A DNA stretch of 64,000 bases from contig OZ244160.1 of NCBI GenBank assembly GCA_965216325.1, forward strand, positions 1,792,001 to 1,856,000, given 5' to 3'. How positions within the stretch are numbered: the stretch's first letter is position 1; every line of letters starts with the position of its first letter. This stretch comes from Coraliomargarita sp. GTDB taxonomy: Bacteria; Verrucomicrobiota; Verrucomicrobiia; Opitutales; Coraliomargaritaceae. Of the stretch, positions 1-11,524 are shown one piece after another. The notes beneath the pieces are model-generated. The model saw nothing but the letters and a program-made list of their open reading frames with translations. It made no database searches and was not told the origin of the DNA. The translations under genes were made by a program, and so were the position numbers.

Positions 1-1003
1 CATGCCCCTTCTGCGGCACAATCTTGGTCTCGGATGAAAGCGTCATATCGCCCGCAGCCATCTGCACCATCCAACTAACCAAGTCGACCCCGGTAACCAG
101 CTCCGTGACGCCATGCTCAACCTGTAGGCGCGTGTTCACCTCGAGGAAGTAATAGTCACCAGTCGAATTGTCATAGACGAACTCAACAGTGCCAGCAGAG
201 CGATACTTCACAGCCTTAGCGAGATTGAGCGCTGCTTCCTGCAAACCATCAATCACGGCATCCGCGACATTCACCGGCGGCGTCTCTTCGATGACCTTCT
301 GATTGCGGCGCTGTGCGGAACAATCGCGCACCCCCAGAGAGACGACATTTCCCTGCCCATCACCAAAGATCTGCACTTCAAGGTGACGTGCTTGCTGGAC
401 ATATTTTTCCAGGAAGATTCCACCTTGGCCGAAATGGCTTTTACTCAGGCGTTCGACACTTTCAAAGGCATCTACCAGTTCCGCTTCGTCGGCACACACT
501 TGCATGCCGATACCACCGCCACCCGCAGTGCTCTTCAGCATCACCGGATAGCCAATGCTCACTGCAATCGTGGTAGCCTCTTCGACACTCTGAAGCAGTG
601 GACTACCCGGCACCAGAGGAACCTGATTCTCTTCCGCGATTCTCCGTGCTTCATGCTTCAGACCGAAAGAGATCATCTGCTCCGGAGTCGGACCGATGAA
701 GGCCATACCTGCCGCCTCGCAGGCCGCAGCAAAGTCTGCATTCTCACTCAGCAAACCATAGCCGGGGTGAATCGCTTGCACATGACGGTCATGGGCAATC
801 TCGAGAATCTTATCAGCCTGTAGATAACTCTCGCTCACCGGAGATGGACCAACAGAGAAGGCCTCCGTCGCCATCGCTACGTGCGGCGCATTCTTATCGG
901 CTTCCGAGTAAATCGCAACCGATTGAATACCAAGTTGATCGAGTGTGCGAATAACCCGACAGGCAATCTCACCTCGATTGGCAATAAGAACTTTAGAAAA
1001 CAT
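1..1003 (-). CDS. uca: Urea/guanidine carboxylase, N-terminal biotin carboxylase domain (runs off the window edge)
   Basis: Hand translation from ATG at 1003 gives [20 protein letters not shown]...[13 protein letters not shown]...GGGGIGM...[17 protein letters not shown]...[16 protein letters not shown]. It lies downstream of two DUF1989 genes. Absent from the ORF track because it is truncated. Confidence 0.85.
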
Positions 1004-1077: not shown

Positions 1078-1713
1078 TTAATCCCAGATGAGAGCTTCAA
1101 CTGGTGTTGGGTTATAAGCGTTACAGGGGTTGTTGAGCTGTGGGCAGTTTGAGATCAGACACATAACATCACGCTCAGCTCTGAGTTCAACATAGCGCCC
1201 AGGCGCGGAGATTCCATCGGCGAACGTCAGTTTCCCTTCAGGTGTGACGGGCACATTCATGAAGAAATTAATATTACAGGTAATATCACGCTTACCAAGA
1301 TCAGGACCCCAGTGTTGGACACCGCAAATAAAGCTATCACGGCAGGCGTGCATGTGCTCCTTATCATGTGCATAGCGCATCGTATTACTTTCTCTTGAAC
1401 AGGCTCCGCCAAGCGTATCATGGCGGCCACATGTGTCAGCTACAATTCGTAGCAAAACATCGCCCTGTGTTGAAATAAGCTCCGTTCCAGTGGTCAAGTA
1501 GAGCGCTTGCTGTCGTTGAATCGTATCAGCCGCGCTATAGCGGTTTTCTGCGTCATGTGCATCGTAGAACAGTGTATCCGCTGCCTGATTTCCTTCGAGA
1601 TCAAGTATGCGCAGTGTCTGACCCTTCTTGATTTCATGTAGCCAGAAGTCTCCGGCCAAAATCACTTCACGATAAACGGCTGTTTCAGGATTGAGTGTGC
1701 TTTCGGTTAACAT
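1078..1713 (-). CDS. cgdB: Urea carboxylase-associated DUF1989 protein (carboxyguanidine deiminase subunit B-like)
   Basis: Motifs [49 protein letters not shown]; position next to the carboxylase. Confidence 0.85.
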
Positions 1714-1725
1714 GGTGCTCTAGTC

Positions 1726-2475
1726 CTAAAATCTAAGTGTGTTATAATCTTCTGTATTCTCGAACGCTCGGACGTTTTCTGGTCGACAAATTCGGCACGG
1801 ATCCTCTGCCGTAGCCCGTTCATTCTTGAAGACCTCGAGTTTCACATGTCCGGGGTCATAGTCTGGATTGGGGTCCAGTGGATGTTGGCAGGTGTTGAGC
1901 ACTACAAGTGTATCCAATTCAAAGCGCAAGTCGACATAGCTCCCCGCCTTTGAGGCTCCACTCACATAACTAAGTTTACCTTCTTCATCAGATACAACTT
2001 TGCTAAACCAATTCAAATTCGGCACCAAGTCACGTTTACCAAGGCCCCACTTTGCAAGCTCGATCAAGAATGCGCGCTGTGCATCTCGGTGGCAATCATT
2101 GCGTGCTTCCTGATAATTTTTAACGCCATACTTAGCTTCTATCAGTTTCTCATCAGAGCAACCACACACAGTATCATGCCAGCCCATAGTATCTGCAGTG
2201 ATCGAACAAAACAAACGGCCCATATCTGAATGCACACAGTAAGGTGCAGTTAAATAGAAGATGTGCTGCCCCTTCAAGGTATCGGGCATATTGTAACGCT
2301 CATGCTTCTCATAAGCATTGTAGAGGAGCATACTGACATTGGCTTTGCCTTCGATATCAGTCATTCGCAGCGTCTTGCCGCGACCGATCACTTTGGACCA
2401 CATCGTCGCACCATGCAATTTCGTTTCGTATATTTTCTCGGTAGCACCAAGCGGATTGGGTATTTTTGTATTCAT
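1726..2475 (-). CDS. cgdA: Urea carboxylase-associated DUF1989 protein (carboxyguanidine deiminase subunit A-like)
   Basis: Motifs [37 protein letters not shown]. Start placed at MNTKIP to avoid overlapping the upstream gene. Confidence 0.85.
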
Positions 2476-2498: not shown

Positions 2499-3917
2499 TT
2501 AATATAGCCGCGCGTATTGATTGATCTCCCACTGGCTGATGCGCTGGTGGTATTGGCGCCACTCTTCAGATTTATATGTGATGAACTCATTGCGTAATTC
2601 ACTGCCAAGCACCTCCTCAACAAATGGGTCTGTGGCAAAAGCATGCACTGCTTCATCAAGACTCCGTGGCAGCTCACTGATACCACGCTCAGCGAGCTGA
2701 GCAGGTGACAGCTCGTAAAGATTGTCTTCTTGCGGATCACCCGGATCCAGTTGCTCTTTGATTCCCTGTAGGCCCGCGGCAAGCGCGAGTGCAGCCGCCA
2801 AGTATGGATTACAGGCCGCATCTGCATTACGCGATTCAACACGCCCGCCTGCCATCGGCACACGGAGCGAGTTGGTGCGGTTGTTACTACCATAGGAATT
2901 GAATACCGGAGCCCATGAGTAGTAGGGCATCAAGCCACGGCGCACCAAGCGCTTGTAGCTGTTGACCGTCGGGGCGAACGTCGCACACAAGGCTGGTCCA
3001 TGCTTCAATATACCGGCGCTGAACTGATAGCCCAAGTCTGTGAGCCCGAGGCCGCGTGGATCCTCCTCCTTTGAACATTTGAACAAGTTCTTCCCTGTCT
3101 TCTTGTCGTAGAGCGACATGTTGAAGTGCGCCCCACTGCCGGTCTTATCCGCAAACGGCTTCGGCATGAAGGTAGCAAGCAAACCTTCTTCCGCAGCATA
3201 ATGCTTAGCCATGTAACGGAAGAAGACAAAGCGGTCACACATGGTCAATGCATCGGCATATTTGAAGTCGAACTCAAACTGTGAATTTGCATCTTCATGA
3301 TCAAAGGAATACAACTCCCAGCCTAGATCATCGATAGTCGTTGCCATCTTATCGAGCCAGTCGTAACGATCCATGAATCGCTTAAAGTCGTAGCAGCTTT
3401 TCTCCAGATTATCGTCGCTATTCGGGATCTCGAGTTGCCCATCTTCGGTATGGCGGACCACGAACACCTCGCACTCGATGCCAAGATTCATACCGAAGCC
3501 CATTTCCTCTGCTTCCTTAAGAACCTTCTGCAGCACAACACGTGCATTCACCTCGTAAGGTTCTCCATGCAAAATGTTATCGGCTGGAATCCACGCCATC
3601 TCAGGGTTCCACGGCAGGGGAATGATCATTCCCAAGTCCGGAACAGAGGCGATTTCATCATCATTCGGACGCTGACCTAGACCATCTAAGGCATAGCCCG
3701 TGTAGAGCTCGGATCCATGAGCAAACTCTTCAAAGTGACTGAGTGGCACCACTTTGCCCTTAGGCACACCATGAATATCCACATAGTTGCCCGCACAATA
3801 CTTAACCCCAAGCTTTTCAAGTTCCGACTGAATCGCTCGGATCTGCTCGTCACTCCAGCGCTCCTCGCTGTAGAGATTACCCGCTGCTGTATTGTATTTG
3901 GCGTAGAATTCTTTCAT
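2499..3917 (-). CDS. Glutamine synthetase-like protein, GlnT/GmaS type (probable gamma-glutamyl-amine ligase)
   Basis: Motifs [41 protein letters not shown] (Trp at the GS Glu-flap position), NRT..RVP, NPYL. Confidence 0.85.
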
Positions 3918-3930
3918 TTGTATTCAGATC

Positions 3931-4707
3931 TTAGATACGTTGAAAATACGATGTAGCGAGTGGTGCTTTCTCCACCAATCCTGCTTCAATACGTGTTGCT
4001 AGTTCGGTGACTATCTGCTCGAAGAGTCGTTCGCCTGCGCTCTGAGTTGCTTCACTTGGTTTGCCAGTCACACCATTTGTACTGGTGCGGTTAACCGGAT
4101 GCGCGAACACACAGTCAGCGGTTCGATCAGGATCATCCGAGCACTTTAGGAAATCAGGACGCACCATGCGTGGCGCAAGGGACATCATCAGGCTGGTTTC
4201 GGCAGCATTCGCATGCCAATCGTCACCATCTGTTGTGAAGGCAGCTTCTATTTCCGGCGAAAGATCACCATCATTAAAGGCTGCGATCATCAAATCATCA
4301 TACCGGCAGCGCATTGTGTCTAAAGCGCAGCGAACTGCAGCGGCATTGCCCACATGGCAATTAACCATGAACCATCGGCGGATACCAGCCTTATAGAGCC
4401 AATCACCAATATCGCAAAGAACCGCGATCATCGTTGTTGGGCTCAACGCCAAAGTCCCAGGCCAGCGGTGCGAATGACCAATCGAGCAGCCATAACCGAG
4501 GGTTGGTAACATTGGCACATTGGTGCGCTGTGCGACTTCACGGCACAGCTTATCAGCGAGGACACTATCCATGCCTGTTCCCAGATGAGGACCATGTTGC
4601 TCGGTCGCTCCCAGCGGCAGAATCGCGGCATCACAGCCACTCTTGATGGCATCAAGAATCTCTGGCCATGTCATCTCACTCCACTGACTGTTCATAAGCT
4701 CGGCCAT
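3931..4707 (-). CDS. Creatininase-family amidohydrolase
   Basis: Motifs [45 protein letters not shown]. Confidence 0.9.
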
Positions 4708-4709
4708 GT

Positions 4710-5609
4710 TTATTCAACATCATCGTTCGCACTCGTCATACGCACCATTGGCAAGGCATGATCTTCGGCGTCTGTCTTTGGGTGAATTAAATCTTCGAGA
4801 CGTTGCTTGGTCGCAAGAAACTCGGGACTCAGCATACAGTCGGGTGTGCGTGGTCGTGGCACCGGCACTTCGATGAACTCGTGAATCTCGCCCGGGTTCG
4901 CCTTCAAAACCAAGATCCGGTCGGAGAGATAGATTGCTTCGTCCAAATCGTGTGTGACGAACATGATCGTGACGTCGACATTGCGCCAGATCTGCAGCAA
5001 GTGGGATTGCATCTGGCAGCGTGTGTGCGGATCCAACGCACCAAAAGGCTCATCCATAAAGAGAATCTGCGGCTGGTTTGCTAACGCACGGGCAATCGCA
5101 ACGCGTTGCTTCATACCTCCTGAGAGCTGACTAGGATACTTCTCAGCCGCATGTGCGAGGCCAACAAGTTCGATCCACTGCAGCGCTTCTTGCTCAACGG
5201 CGGTGCCGGAACGTCCGTTGACTTCTAGGCCAAACATTACGTTCTTTTTCACACTCAGCCATGGAAAGAGTGTATAGCCCTGGAAGACCATACCACGGTC
5301 CGCACCCGGGCCGCTTGGCTCTTCACCATCGAGAAGGAAACTACCACCTGAAAGCGTTTCCAAACCAGCAAGCATACGAATCAGTGTCGACTTACCGCAA
5401 CCCGACGGTCCAATCACCGAAATGAACTCGCGGCGATGCATGTTAAATTCAATCGGGCTGAGCACATCGACGGTGCCCTTGGCAGTGGTGAAGCTCTTGC
5501 TAACACCTTTAACCTCCAGCTTTATTGGTCGCTTGTATATCTCGGCGAACCGTGCACGGACGGCTTCGCTTTGCTCTTTGTAGCTCGGTAGTTCGATTAC
5601 ATCGTTCAT
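4710..5609 (-). CDS. ABC transporter ATP-binding protein (NitT/TauB family)
   Basis: Walker [31 protein letters not shown]. Confidence 0.95.
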
Positions 5610-5612
5610 TGC

Positions 5613-6998
5613 TTATGCCTTTCCGTTAACAGGTGAGTCGTAGACCTTGCGGTCGAAAATCCAGAAGAAGAATCGTCCAATCAAACCGTGCTTCTTTTCA
5701 GAGGCTTCCGGTGTCCATGGGAAGAGATACTTTCGCAGGGATGAGAGGATTTGGTCGGTCGTGAAACCGGTGATACCAATTAGAATGATGATCGGGAACA
5801 CACTATCGAAGTTGCGCCAGCGGCCTTGCGTCTCGAGGAACTCAGTCAAACCACTCTTCACACCAATGAGCTCCGCAATCACCAGCCAAGTCCAAGCCCA
5901 GCCGAGCAAGATTCGTAGGTCATTAAATAAATTCGGCGTAATCCCCGGTAAAATAACACGACGAATAAGTGTCATGTTCTTCGCGCCGAGTGTTTGGGCG
6001 GCTTCAATCAGAGAGGCATCGAGTTGACGCGTTGTATTCGCGACCACCAGCACGAGTTGGAAGAAGGTGCCGACAAAGACCAAGGCGATCTTGGGTGCGT
6101 CATGCGCGAGAAAGATTGCAACCAAGAGCGTGCTGAACGCCGGTGCTGGCATATAGCGGAAGAAATCGATAAAGGGCTCAAAGAGACGAGAAAAAAAATC
6201 AAAGGTCCCACAGAGAACGCCAAGTGGCACACCGAACAAAGCCGCCATCAAGAAACCGAGGAAGACGATCTTCAGCGAGTGTTTATAGCGCTCAAACATG
6301 GATGGCTTGTCCCCATCCGAAGTGAAGGTGAAATCGTCGATACCCTTGAGCATTACCTCGTGTGGTGCAGGTAGATAAACTGGATTGGCCGACTTTCCTT
6401 GCGGAACCAACTTTTCAAGTGGTGTTTCTGGTAGCAACTTCGAGGCAAACTCCGGCGAACGCTCCGACATCAAGACCCAGTTGCGCTCGATGATCGAACG
6501 GTTCTCGTCGGTGAACTTGACCTTCGTTTCCTCCAGTTCCCCTTCAGCAACATCACGCCAGACATAATAAAGTAATTCATCCTGATCCTTTTCATCCTTG
6601 GTTAGCCACCCATTGGCCACTGCAACTGATGAGATGTGTCGCATCTTCTTAACATTTGCACGGCGGATTCGCGAAGCGCTGCCTTCGACCTCATCGGACT
6701 GACGGGCTTCTAGGATGGCCGTGTTATCGGATTGAATTGCAGCGACAAACTCTGGGAAATAATCCTTCGATAAGTGATCTCCCGAAGTGAATACAGTCGT
6801 TACATCCTCACGATCTGCAGAGATCTGCAACTTTACATCTGGATGCCAAATAAATGGTGTGTAGCTAACAAATGCCCAAACAAGCAATGGCAGCATAAAC
6901 GACAAGATTGTCAGGAGAGTGCGGCGTTTCGCACTGAGCTCTTTGCGTATGGCAAACCAAGATGGCTGAGCTTTCTTACTGTTTTTTGCGATACTCAT
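5613..6998 (-). CDS. ABC transporter permease (NitT/TauC family) with a large soluble insertion
   Basis: [11 protein letters not shown] motif [24 protein letters not shown]. Confidence 0.9.
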
Positions 6999-7106: not shown

Positions 7107-8108
7107 TTACTTGAGCGACTCTGCGTATTCGAGCACCAGACTTGGGTCCAGATACTTGTCGGTATCGAGGTTTTCCTCGTAAACGCCCTGGTCGACATTG
7201 AACTGGTCAGCGATTACAGTGGAACCGTAAACCGAACCGAGGCCTTCAGCCTTCTTCCAAATTGGAAGCGCTTCTTCGAGACTCAGGATGTATGTGCCTT
7301 CGAAGAAGGGTTCGTATTCTTCAGGTGAAATTTCAACACGTGCTGCAAGGATCTCGAGTGCCTCATCGAGGTTGTCTTCATCCTTGAGGAAATCGACGAT
7401 CTTATACCAGACCTTCACGACCTTCGCCCAATCATCGCGACGCTTTTCAAGGCTTTCTGGGTCAACCGAAAGCAGATCGTAAATGATACCCGGTGCGTCC
7501 GCAGAGGTCAGCACAGGTGTGGAACCTGGAACCGTCTTGAGCGCTTGACCGGAGTTTGGCTGCCATGCACCAATGGCGTCGACCGCGCCAGATGCAAGCA
7601 CCTGTGGTGTTTCGTTGGTTGGAACGTTGACGATTTCAAACTCGGAAGGATCGATACCTGCGAGCTCAGCACCCTTAAGAAGTAGAAGATGAATCACGAA
7701 ACCTTCTTCGAGGCCAATCTTCTTACCCTTGAGGTCTGCCAGTGTTTTGATACCCGGCGCTGCAACGACCATGTCGTTACCATTTGAGTAGTCGTTGATG
7801 ATAATGCCGACCGAAGGCTTACCAGTACCTCCGGTAACGAGTGCATCACCATTGGTCATCGTCACTGCATCAATAAGGCCAGCGGCGTAAGCATCCATCG
7901 ACGCGACATAGTCCATCCATTGAAATTCGACCGCAATGCCTTCTTCTTCAAACCAGCCCTTATCGATACCGATTTGCCAAGCGACCCATCCCGGCCAGTC
8001 GCTGTAGCCGATCTTAAGTGGTTCTTTGGCGGACAGTGCAGAGCCGACGAAGAGGCTCGTAACACAGAGGAGAGTAGCCTTGAAGGCCGAGGTCTTGATT
8101 TTGAACAT
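7107..8108 (-). CDS. ABC transporter substrate-binding protein (urea carboxylase-associated, NMT1/SsuA-like)
   Basis: Signal peptide; [37 protein letters not shown]. Start placed at MFKIK, after an AAGGA RBS. Confidence 0.9.
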
Positions 8109-8195
8109 GATCAATTTCCTTAGATGTGTAGCTAGTAAGTCTTTCTCGTAGAGAACACGTCCTTCGACAGATCGGCCGAAGACAGGCACAGGATT

Positions 8196-8211
8196 TGCAG
8201 AAAGCATGCCA
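8196..8211 (-). promoter_or_regulatory. Sigma54 (-24/-12) promoter of the ABC/carboxylase operon
   Basis: Minus strand reads TGGCATGCTTTCTGCA, matching TGGCACG-N4-TTGCW with exact GG/GC spacing, about 90 bp upstream of the first gene. Confidence 0.75.
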
Positions 8212-8233
8212 ACCCTCGAAAAGTGTTGAAAAA

Positions 8234-8261
8234 GTAATATGAATAAACCTGAAAGTATTAC
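8234..8261. promoter_or_regulatory. NikR-type operator GTAATA-N16-TATTAC
   Basis: Perfect 6-16-6 inverted repeat between the divergent genes; same geometry as the E. coli NikR operator GTATGA-N16-TCATAC. Confidence 0.8.
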
Positions 8262-8287
8262 GATTTTCTAAACTCACAGCTATTCGT

Positions 8288-8743
8288 ATGACGATGGACA
8301 AAAATGATCATAAGGCGACTGCCGCCCGTATCAGTGTTTCGCTACCTCCACAGCTTGCCGCAGCGCTTGACAGGATGATTGAAGAGCGTGGCTTCCATAA
8401 TCGCTCGCAAGCGATTGCGGATATGATTCAGCAACAGCTAATTGAGCATCAGCAGGAGAAAAGCGATGCGGTCATGGCTGGCACGATCACGCTCATCTAC
8501 AATACTGCCAAGCCTGAACTCTTACAGAAGCTAACGCGTATTCAGCGTGAGCACATCCAAGAATGTATCAGCAGCCAGCATGTGCAGTTGGAAGGCGATT
8601 ACATCATGGAAGTTGTCTTGGTCCAAGGCCCGGTGCAGCGACTTCGTGAGATCACCGACCGTATGATCACCTGTAAAGGCGTCAGTTTCGGACGGCTGAC
8701 GCTCACAGATAAACTGATTCCGCAGGTGCACGGCCGCGGATAA
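8288..8743 (+). CDS. NikR-family ribbon-helix-helix regulator with a degenerate Ni site
   Basis: RISVSLP...[24 protein letters not shown] domain plus a C-terminal ACT-like domain (GTITLIYN...HV...MEVVLVQG...KGV..GRL). Confidence 0.9.
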
Positions 8744-8928
8744 TTGCGCATTTCTGCAAATGCTTTTCATATTATGCAGTATTCCTCGGAAACAACTTGG
8801 CGTAAATTTGGATCTTTTAACGCGCTTCATCCGATGCATGACTGTATTTCACCCTATCAAATAGAGTCGGCACTTGCGTTTGGAAGCGGATCACATTTTT
8901 TCGGCAAATCACTAACCCACAGAATACT

Positions 8929-10434
<1,506 letters not shown>

Positions 10435-10639: not shown

Positions 10640-11524
10640 TTAGGATACCGACTTCCCGAAGTAGGACAACAGCCACATTTCTTTCCACAGACGATAACGG
10701 CCATTGTAGGTAATCTGTCCCTCTTCTTCCTGATGCATACGGTGCACCAAAAAGCCGTAATCCGTATTTAACCGCTCCAAGATCCGTTGCTGCTCATTGA
10801 TTTCCTCAAGCGGTGTATCTTCGAAAGGAATCGATATCATATTCGACTTAAGCAGGCGCTTGTAATGATAATTAAGCAATCGTGGCAGACGGCCTATTAG
10901 CGGCTTCCTAGACTGATTCCAGGCCTCTGGATAGTAACCACCAAAGGGCAAGAAATGATTGTCGGTAATCAGGCGCTGTCCGTCCTCACCAATCGTGCTA
11001 ATTGTATAACAAGCAGCGGCGTCTCCCTTACGTTTCGGAACAAAAAGCACCTGAATACGGGTTAACTGATCATCGCTTTCGTAAACCGAAGCACGTAAAA
11101 ATGTATCTTCAAAAAGCTCAGCCTTAAGCGCACAGACAGGCTTAAAGTCCTGCTTTCGCAACCAATCCTTTAATTCGATAAGCTCCTTATCGACAGGCCA
11201 TTCATCCCCATCATGGTTCACTCTAAAACTCGGAAACAATGGTAGATCGCTATTGCTGAGTGCTTTGATCGCAATCCAGTTGTAGCCAGTCTCCAACAAA
11301 AACCAAATACACAGTCCAGTGACAAAATGCACCCAATCCGGCCGCAAGGATAGTTCTGTAGCACGCAGAATAAAGGCAAAGATCGCTGCAAATAAAAACC
11401 AACGCATCCAGCGTGCGAGCACGTTCAACACTGGAAGTTGCACACGCCCACCGAGAATGGGTAAGAAAATCGCAAGCAAGGCACAGGCTAGAAGCAGGTA
11501 TTCGACTGTAGTTTCGTTAAGCAT
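10640..11524 (-). CDS. Hypothetical membrane protein (about three N-terminal TM helices plus a soluble domain)
   Basis: 294-aa ORF with a hydrophobic N-terminus; no recognised motif. Confidence 0.75.
   Translation of the reverse strand: MLNETTVEYLLLACALLAIFLPILGGRVQLPVLNVLARWMRWFLFAAIFAFILRATELSLRPDWVHFVTGLCIWFLLETGYNWIAIKALSNSDLPLFPSFRVNHDGDEWPVDKELIELKDWLRKQDFKPVCALKAELFEDTFLRASVYESDDQLTRIQVLFVPKRKGDAAACYTISTIGEDGQRLITDNHFLPFGGYYPEAWNQSRKPLIGRLPRLLNYHYKRLLKSNMISIPFEDTPLEEINEQQRILERLNTDYGFLVHRMHQEEEGQITYNGRYRLWKEMWLLSYFGKSVS

Follow-up and report, generated by a model that had tools for sequence, protein, structure and literature searches.

We analyzed a 64,000-nucleotide stretch of a Coraliomargarita sp. 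genome (assembly GCA_965216325.1, contig OZ244160.1, positions 1,792,001 to 1,856,000 of the forward strand). This whole stretch is called the window, and its own numbering is used unless another is named. At 8288–8743 it carries a gene for a NikR-like regulator, which is divergent from a minus-strand operon for guanidine catabolism. The regulator is a NikR by fold and descent, without the family's defining nickel (Ni) site and genomic role. It very probably controls the operon through a palindromic operator that lies between them, and we are confident that nickel is not its signal. We consider it fairly probable that the regulator represses the guanidine carboxylase operon locally until a ligand releases it, as a protein equivalent of the guanidine-I riboswitch. 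The features of the regulator and its operator are listed below.

8288..8743, plus strand: NikR-like regulator gene, 151 aa (open reading frame (ORF), Pfam, NCBIfam, AlphaFold2 model, Foldseek)
8327..8440, plus strand: ribbon-helix-helix (RHH) DNA-binding domain, residues 14–51, with strand RISVS (PF01402, RHH_1; E = 1.3e-7)
8477..8707, plus strand: NikR_C (ACT-like) domain, residues 64–140 (PF08753; E = 3.8e-24)
8546..8605, plus strand: codons at the former Ni-ligand positions, R87 8546–8548, H98 8579–8581, Q100 8585–8587 and I106 8603–8605 (gapless phmmer alignment, column counts)
8234..8261, no strand assigned: operator GTAATAT-N14-GTATTAC, two palindromic heptads, 21 bp centre to centre (exact GTAATA-N16-TATTAC; conserved in relatives)

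An initial annotation of this DNA had proposed a NikR fold with an intact RISVS strand, and our analysis agreed with it. Besides matching RHH_1 and NikR_C, the regulator scored 123.7 bits against the NCBIfam equivalog model NF003381 'NikR' (cut-off 105). Strand residues R14, I15, S16, V17 and S18 were all in place, and R14, S16, R39 and S40 were invariant in 112 of 112 clade members. The AlphaFold2 monomer model, built on an alignment of 112 relatives, had a mean pLDDT of 85.9. Its top Foldseek matches were NikR structures from P. horikoshii (2bj3/2bj1) and H. pylori (6mrj). The C-terminal domain was superposed by Foldseek on H. pylori NikR 3pht_B with an rmsd of 0.8 over 81 columns, and superpositions of this domain on NikR structures gave rmsd values of 0.8–0.9 over 81 columns and TMt values of 0.93–0.95. 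By phmmer, the regulator matched P. horikoshii NikR 2bj1 with an E value of 7.2e-28. A second NikR_C gene was not found in the 3.06-Mb genome, where the regulator is the sole one.

The phmmer alignment to E. coli NikR 1q5v was gapless. Residues 14–139 of the query corresponded to residues 3–128 of the chain, and an E. coli position equals the query position minus 11. The square-planar Ni ligands of E. coli NikR are His76', His87, His89 and Cys95. In the regulator, these positions are R87 (H76), H98 (H87, kept), Q100 (H89) and I106 (C95), exactly as the initial annotation had mapped them, and only one of the four ligands is retained. Among 1.84 billion representatives, a search without profiles found 1380 relatives, the best 150 of which (50%-identity representatives) were aligned with the query. 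Of the 151 aligned sequences, 82 were without the ligand Cys, and 63 had H/H/H/C in exactly the four ligand columns, which served as an internal check of these columns. Cys was absent from position 106 in all 121 sequences of a set made up of the query and its 120 best homologues. Position 87 was Arg in 106 of them, position 98 was His in 101, and position 100 was L, Q, F or H.

The loss was also found at genomic loci. The clade has at least 592 genomic hits, and it ranges over Verrucomicrobiota, Kiritimatiellia, and Alpha-, Beta- and Gammaproteobacteria. We took 80 loci from species-representative genomes, and Cys was absent from the ligand position in all 80. NikR homologues from genomes of the same phylum that lack UAAP2, a protein of the guanidine pathway, behaved differently. 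With 33–45% identity to the query, 20 of 20 keep H/H/H/C and the H73 position. The canonical group carries H73, H74, H134, E41, R44 and D102, whereas the Ni-less group has lost them and has conserved positions of its own (M63, E92, L111, Q113, P115 and a Pro-Pro-x-His tail). Arg occupies position 87 (E. coli His76) in 98 of 112 clade members. Position 100 varies among L, Q, F and H, and position 106 among I, V, R, T and M. H89, H98, C129 and H148 are well conserved within the verrucomicrobial branch. Judged from these alignments, loss of the Ni site is a property of a large clade rather than a one-off decay. The lost nickel site claimed for this one protein was thus borne out clade-wide (Cys in 0/121 and 0/80, vs 20/20 canonical in the same-phylum contrast).

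The initial annotation had also reported a perfect GTAATA-N16-TATTAC palindrome between the regulator and the operon. It is present exactly at 8234–8261 and is conserved in 68 of 80 loci, although it is better written as two heptads, GTAWTAC-N14-GTAWTAC. The operator ends 26 nt upstream of the regulator's own ATG, and autoregulation is therefore implied. At up to two mismatches, GTAATA-N16-TATTAC matched the window twice (0.47 expected). The site is the only perfect match to GTAWTA-N16-TAWTAC in the 3.06-Mb genome. A wider regulon was not indicated in this genome, since 11 further places matched with one mismatch vs 23 for a reversed control pattern. With a single perfect genomic site and no enrichment of weaker ones, the regulon is therefore local. 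A one-mismatch site near the urease cluster (genome position 1911363) was rejected as an operator; it sits inside an ORF.

Upstream regions of relatives gave the family consensus GTAWTAC-N14-GTAWTAC, which is frequently extended to GTATTACGAA...TTCGTAATAC. At up to two mismatches, the motif was found in the 68 loci with 83 hits, vs a mean of 3.4 in five shuffles of the same DNA. An overall total of 87 hits also includes four own-genome loci. In 60 of the 80 loci, the operator lies at most 150 nt upstream of the regulator gene or at most 200 nt upstream of the gene for the substrate-binding protein (SBP) of an ABC importer. It is also a conserved block in an alignment of 15 intergenic regions of the Puniceicoccaceae type. 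A palindrome of 6 + 6 letters is weak evidence by itself; on these sequence counts, its conservation in 68 of 80 loci puts it beyond chance. Two heptads 21 bp apart would fit two RHH dimers on one DNA face, as in the NikR tetramer.

The operon combines an importer with creatininase-like and glutamine-synthetase-like enzymes, UAAP1, UAAP2, a urea/guanidine carboxylase and allophanate hydrolase, and it encodes the guanidine carboxylase pathway. UAAP1 and UAAP2 are presumably of the CgdAB type. Homologues of UAAP1, UAAP2 or the carboxylase lay beside the regulator in 69 of the 80 loci, and UAAP1 was directly downstream of the regulator and co-oriented with it in 53. Among the 11 loci without guanidine genes, eight are short contigs that end within transporter or cassette genes. 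The linkage was also seen from the side of the pathway. We sampled 401 genomes evenly from the phylum, and 41 of them had UAAP2 over the cut-off. In 33 of these 41, a NikR homologue (E <= 1e-10) shared the contig with UAAP2 and was no more than about 8 kb away. One of the others had a NikR homologue on another contig, one was cut at a contig end, and six were without a homologue.

Loci with and without the regulator were compared in a sample of 400 genomes, drawn evenly from the class of one proteobacterial carrier (gammaproteobacterial) and searched with the glutamine-synthetase-like (GS-like) protein of the cassette. Ten loci with orthologues at >=67% identity and four weaker ones were taken from it. 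A NikR-like gene was present in seven of the ten orthologous cassettes. The region upstream of the SBP gene was visible in six NikR-like loci. All six had a sigma-54 promoter, the operator, a ribosome site and the ATG, and none had a guanidine-I riboswitch there. Three complete cassettes, two orthologous and one weaker, were without a NikR-like gene. All three had a sigma-54 promoter followed by a guanidine-I riboswitch, which precedes both the SBP gene and UAAP1, and the operator was absent. One further orthologous locus was uninformative because its contig stops beyond the GS-like gene. No other argument speaks as strongly for a protein in the riboswitch's role as this position-for-position alternation, although the loci are few and, being related, not independent. 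Guanidine-I and Guanidine-II riboswitches occur inside orthologous operons, and the operon therefore responds to guanidine.

In the window itself, the operator is placed differently relative to the promoter. Three more elements of the intergenic region are listed here.

8195..8212, minus strand: sigma-54-type promoter of the catabolic operon, TTGGCATGCTTTCTGCAA, with GG at 8210/8209 and GC at 8198/8197 (regular expression; conserved in alignment)
8185..8198, plus strand: second sigma-54-like motif, GGCACAGGATTTGC, facing the regulator gene (regular expression; conserved in some relatives only, exact in L005 and L010)
8283..8290, plus strand: conserved box TCGTATGA across the regulator start codon (block T.GTAT.A in the intergenic alignment)

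The alignment of 15 regions had three conserved blocks, namely the minus-strand sigma-54 promoter, the operator and the TCGTATGA box. The promoter block, GCA..AA...TGCCAA, was conserved in all 15, and rpoN is present in the genome. The minus-strand motif presumably works as the operon promoter. Within 8185–8212, the motifs on opposite strands overlap via their −12 elements (GGCACAGGATTTGC on the plus strand and TGGCATGCTTTCTGCA on the minus strand), possibly forming a near-palindromic, bidirectional sigma-54 promoter. The TCGTATGA box may belong to the context of the start codon or form a third element resembling a half-site. A sigma-70 promoter scan of 8000–9000 found nothing intergenic and a single site inside the regulator gene, so that no promoter of this type was assigned. 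The operator lies 23 bp (8211–8233) upstream of the −24 element of the operon promoter. If transcription starts near 8185, it occupies about −49 to −76 of the operon. In many relatives' loci, the operator begins 6–8 bp past the −12 element of a TGGCAC-N5-TTGCW motif, and in Verrucomicrobiales loci the GG-N10-GC frame itself contains the first heptad.

These observations suggested a mechanism in which the Ni-less NikR clade would be a dedicated local regulator of the guanidine carboxylase pathway. The regulator is expected to bind DNA, to act as a repressor and to form a tetramer. The two RHH dimers of one tetramer would bind the two heptads GTAWTAC-N14-GTAWTAC. In other lineages, the operator past the −12 element would cover the transcription start, at the place where sister operons have a guanidine-I riboswitch. 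Without ligand, the repressor would keep a nitrogen-limitation (sigma-54) promoter shut. Guanidine or the next intermediate (carboxyguanidine or allophanate) would bind the C-terminal domain and lower its DNA affinity. In the window, the upstream operator may act on the operon by hindering the contact between activator and sigma-54 or by DNA looping. Operon control is presumed here, and the case is weaker than that for start-site occlusion in other lineages.

Several observations weigh against this account. The window operator is upstream of the sigma-54 promoter of the operon and not over the start site, so that simple occlusion does not apply. Three of the 80 loci have other neighbours. Six of the 41 UAAP2-positive genomes (G452, G460, G463, G586, G625 and G670) have no NikR homologue; they carry UAAP1 and two UAAP2-like genes in tandem. 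In five of these six, no Guanidine-I was detected among the 150 candidates scored out of 184–302. A third mode of control must therefore exist. Proteobacterial members of the clade have Thr106 but retain His87, His98 and His100, and a metal site is possible there. The Coraliomargarita genome has urease with its accessory genes and a urea ABC importer, and no other NikR. Finally, Guanidine-II was found upstream of the carboxylase gene in six NikR-like operons (L040, L046, L050, L052, L060 and L065), and also in L097 and L100 of the second sample. L066 has guanidine-I before a divergent UAAP1, which brings the riboswitch total to 7 of 11 proteobacterial NikR-like loci tested. The Guanidine-II (mini-ykkC) sites are all mid-operon, immediately upstream of the carboxylase gene.

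L040, 11877–11923: Guanidine-II site
L046, 11874–11920: Guanidine-II site
L050, 11918–11964: Guanidine-II site
L052, 11895–11941: Guanidine-II site
L060, 3228–3274: Guanidine-II site
L065, 4686–4732: Guanidine-II site
L100, 10254–10300: Guanidine-II site
L097, 1549–1597: Guanidine-II site

As Guanidine-II coexists with the regulator, the signal of the protein might be different from guanidine. The two occur in the same operons, so that protein and RNA sensors can act in series. Such a series might read one ligand at two levels or respond to two separate signals. No Rfam family matched the window, no Guanidine-I was found in the genome, and none of the 12 Verrucomicrobiota/Kiritimatiellia loci tested had a guanidine riboswitch. 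The initial annotation had inferred that the ACT-like domain was repurposed to sense an organic ligand (pathway substrate or intermediate), giving a protein sensor where guanidine operons usually use a riboswitch. The alternation with guanidine-I (6/6 vs 3/3) upheld the placement of the protein where related operons have a riboswitch, but the coexistence with Guanidine-II means that the protein is not a simple replacement, and an organic ligand of the ACT-like domain is still putative. That the effector is guanidine or a pathway intermediate is what we infer, and we put it at even or slightly better.

Three other explanations were considered. The regulator might sense nitrogen status or a general metabolite (e.g. 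glutamine or 2-oxoglutarate), leaving guanidine to RNA or without any sensor. Binding of amino acids is common among ACT-like domains. The operon serves nitrogen scavenging, Guanidine-II riboswitches share operons with the protein, and the logic of NikR, in which the ligand-bound form binds DNA, would suit a nitrogen-sufficiency co-repressor. However, the sigma-54 promoter before the operator would usually carry the nitrogen-limitation input already. The clade is tied to guanidine genes (69/80 loci, 33/41 genomes) and not to urease, amt or other nitrogen genes, and the alternation with the guanidine-I riboswitch is position for position. We regard nitrogen sensing as unlikely. A regulator with no effector is less likely still. 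It would be a constitutive autoregulator, or an architectural protein with a damping or shaping effect on the sigma-54 promoter, and Arg87 would fill the metal site and lock the DNA-binding form. The cationic Arg in place of E. coli His76 in 98 of 112 clade members agrees with this, as does the free variation of positions 100 and 106, and the window operator sits where IHF-type bending sites often are at sigma-54 promoters. Yet the strong conservation of the whole C-terminal domain and the clade-specific E92, Q113, P115 and PP-x-H tail suggest that more than oligomerisation is being maintained. That the regulator alternates one for one with a ligand-sensing RNA is a further argument for a sensor.

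The regulator could also have remained a metal sensor, with nickel or some other metal bound at a non-canonical site, and would then switch between the Ni-dependent urease and the Ni-independent, ATP-consuming carboxylase, a nickel-sparing arrangement. The urease genes of this genome would fit such a role, and the regulator is the sole NikR_C protein in 47 of 50 clade-carrying genomes. H89, H98, C129 and H148 of the verrucomicrobial branch and the three His of proteobacterial members are candidate ligands. However, these candidates are not conserved across the clade; H98 is R, Q, N or D in many members, and C129 is L, N, M, R or Q in Proteobacteria. The ligand Cys is absent from all members examined, and the accessory His residues of NikR are lost too. 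A urease alpha match was found in only 25 of the 50 clade genomes, a count of little weight either way, since these are metagenome-assembled genomes (MAGs) of unknown completeness. The urease cluster has no operator-like site, and the riboswitches of the pathway indicate guanidine, not urea, as the substrate. The initial annotation had stated that none of the operon's enzyme families is known to need Ni. A Ni link is indeed absent among the neighbours, but a nickel-sparing switch is not thereby countered, with urease present in the genome. On balance, we judge metal sensing very improbable.

A canonical NikR paralogue beside the Ni-less one was also sought as a pattern; it is not general, as 47 of the 50 genomes have one NikR_C hit. 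The urea ABC importer, the structural and accessory genes of urease and a membrane ORF of 244 aa lie together at G000:C1:1895268-1906850, about 100 kb from the locus. On the chromosome of one relative (L030), about 5 kb separate a urease gene from the guanidine locus.

The ligand-released repressor was compared with known systems. Canonical NikR proteins (E. coli 1q5v/2hza/2hzv, P. horikoshii 2bj1/2bj3 and H. pylori 2ca9/6mrj) have the same two-domain architecture and fold, and the same RHH strand with Arg and Ser/Thr. The E. coli NikR operator is GTATGA-N16-TCATAC, and both operators are two-part sites spanning 28 bp. Unlike canonical NikR, the regulator lacks three of the four Ni ligands and the accessory His. 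Its neighbours are guanidine catabolic genes and gnd rather than Ni uptake genes or Ni enzymes. Its half-site is GTAWTAC, and its operator is tied to sigma-54 promoters. Where canonical NikR uses its metal for co-repression, induction of a catabolic operon would be expected for the regulator. The Guanidine-I (ykkC) riboswitch RF00442 occupies the same cassette positions, past the sigma-54 promoter and before the SBP gene and UAAP1, and serves the same pathway. It is an RNA that acts in cis on the transcript with proven ligand binding, whereas the regulator is a protein on DNA and a putative sensor. As for a guanidine-responsive element, we found the regulator at guanidine operon control regions (69/80 loci) and, in the small sample of related loci, interchangeable with Guanidine-I (6/6 vs 3/3). 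MetJ is an RHH repressor with SAM as its co-repressor and without an ACT-like domain. Small-molecule-responsive RHH repressors of this kind would resemble the regulator in RHH binding to tandem short boxes and in metabolite modulation.

Guanidine is a widespread nitrogen source and stress compound. The Ni-less NikR clade is a concrete and widespread candidate guanidine regulator with a defined operator, and the regulator/operator pair could serve as a guanidine biosensor part. The clade is also an example of a metalloregulator scaffold without its metal. Its members pass the NCBI equivalog model for NikR, and public records call them 'nickel-responsive', a systematic annotation error that would mislead inventories of nickel use. 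We tentatively suggest, a little short of an even call, that the clade may be the first protein transcription factor to receive guanidinium directly, a metal-sensor scaffold turned into a small-cation sensor that gates sigma-54 promoters. It is doubtful, and we would give it little credence, that Arg87 acts as a tethered guanidinium, occupying the former metal site and keeping the protein in its DNA-binding form until free guanidinium competes and frees the operator.

We found no account of a Ni-less NikR-like regulator in the open-access literature searched; subscription papers lie outside that search. In the same literature, there was no relevant link between NikR and urea carboxylase or DUF1989, between ribbon-helix-helix proteins and the guanidine riboswitch, or between nickel-responsive regulators and allophanate hydrolase, and among the papers listed by title, nothing relevant paired NikR or CopG with guanidine. 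PMC10927577 only cites a NikR paper. A 2025 review knows only riboswitches as regulatory guanidine receptors and explicitly awaits protein regulators (PMC12186494).

The genes around the regulator are listed below, from the first operon gene towards the window start, with gnd last.

7107..8108, minus strand: SBP (NMT1/SsuA-like) of the ABC importer, first operon gene (Pfam NMT1/NMT1_2; TIGR03427 'urea ABC' 142 bits, below the cut-off of 334)
5613..6998, minus strand: ABC permease, 461 aa (Pfam BPD_transp_1, residues 256–415 only)
4710..5609, minus strand: ABC ATPase (Pfam ABC_tran)
3931..4707, minus strand: creatininase-family hydrolase (PF02633, E = 3.4e-68; TIGR04448 below cut-off)
2499..3917, minus strand: type III GS-like ligase (TIGR03105, 618.6 bits, over the cut-off of 469.6)
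1726..2475, minus strand: UAAP1 (DUF1989), carboxyguanidine-deiminase-type subunit (TIGR03425, 327.7 bits, over cut-off)
1078..1713, minus strand: UAAP2 (DUF1989), second subunit (TIGR03424, 333.7 bits, over cut-off)
1..1003, minus strand: urea/guanidine carboxylase gene, 5' part, running off the window start (TIGR02712, positions 1–332 of 1201)
8929..10434: gnd, downstream of the regulator

In the genome, the full carboxylase ORF has 1199 aa, and allophanate hydrolase comes next. The latter ends the operon outside the window (G000:C1:1787549-1789332, minus strand) and is present as two ORFs of 291 and 298 aa in different frames. A frameshift, a pseudogene or an assembly error may account for this split. 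In the permease, about 250 residues ahead of the transporter domain had no Pfam match. A short hairpin, GCATTT-CTGC-AAATGC followed by TTTTC, lies at 8748–8763 just past the regulator stop. It is absent from the terminator scan list and may be a weak terminator before gnd. Between gnd and dnaN, a 294-aa ORF (10640–11524, minus strand) matched no Pfam family at E <= 0.001.

The three loci with other neighbours were of two kinds. In two methanotroph MAG loci (L048:1228-3114 and L072:2841-4613), the Ni-less NikR-like gene adjoins a MOSC-FAD/NAD-2Fe2S oxidoreductase, not guanidine genes, and there is an operator-like site at the oxidoreductase start or shortly before it. MOSC enzymes reduce N-hydroxylated compounds. 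The third locus, an alphaproteobacterial one, has a GS-like gene and a GGDEF/EAL protein as neighbours. The pair of creatininase-like and GS-like genes (2499–4707) recurs in 27 of the 80 related loci, and also in riboswitch-controlled cassettes.

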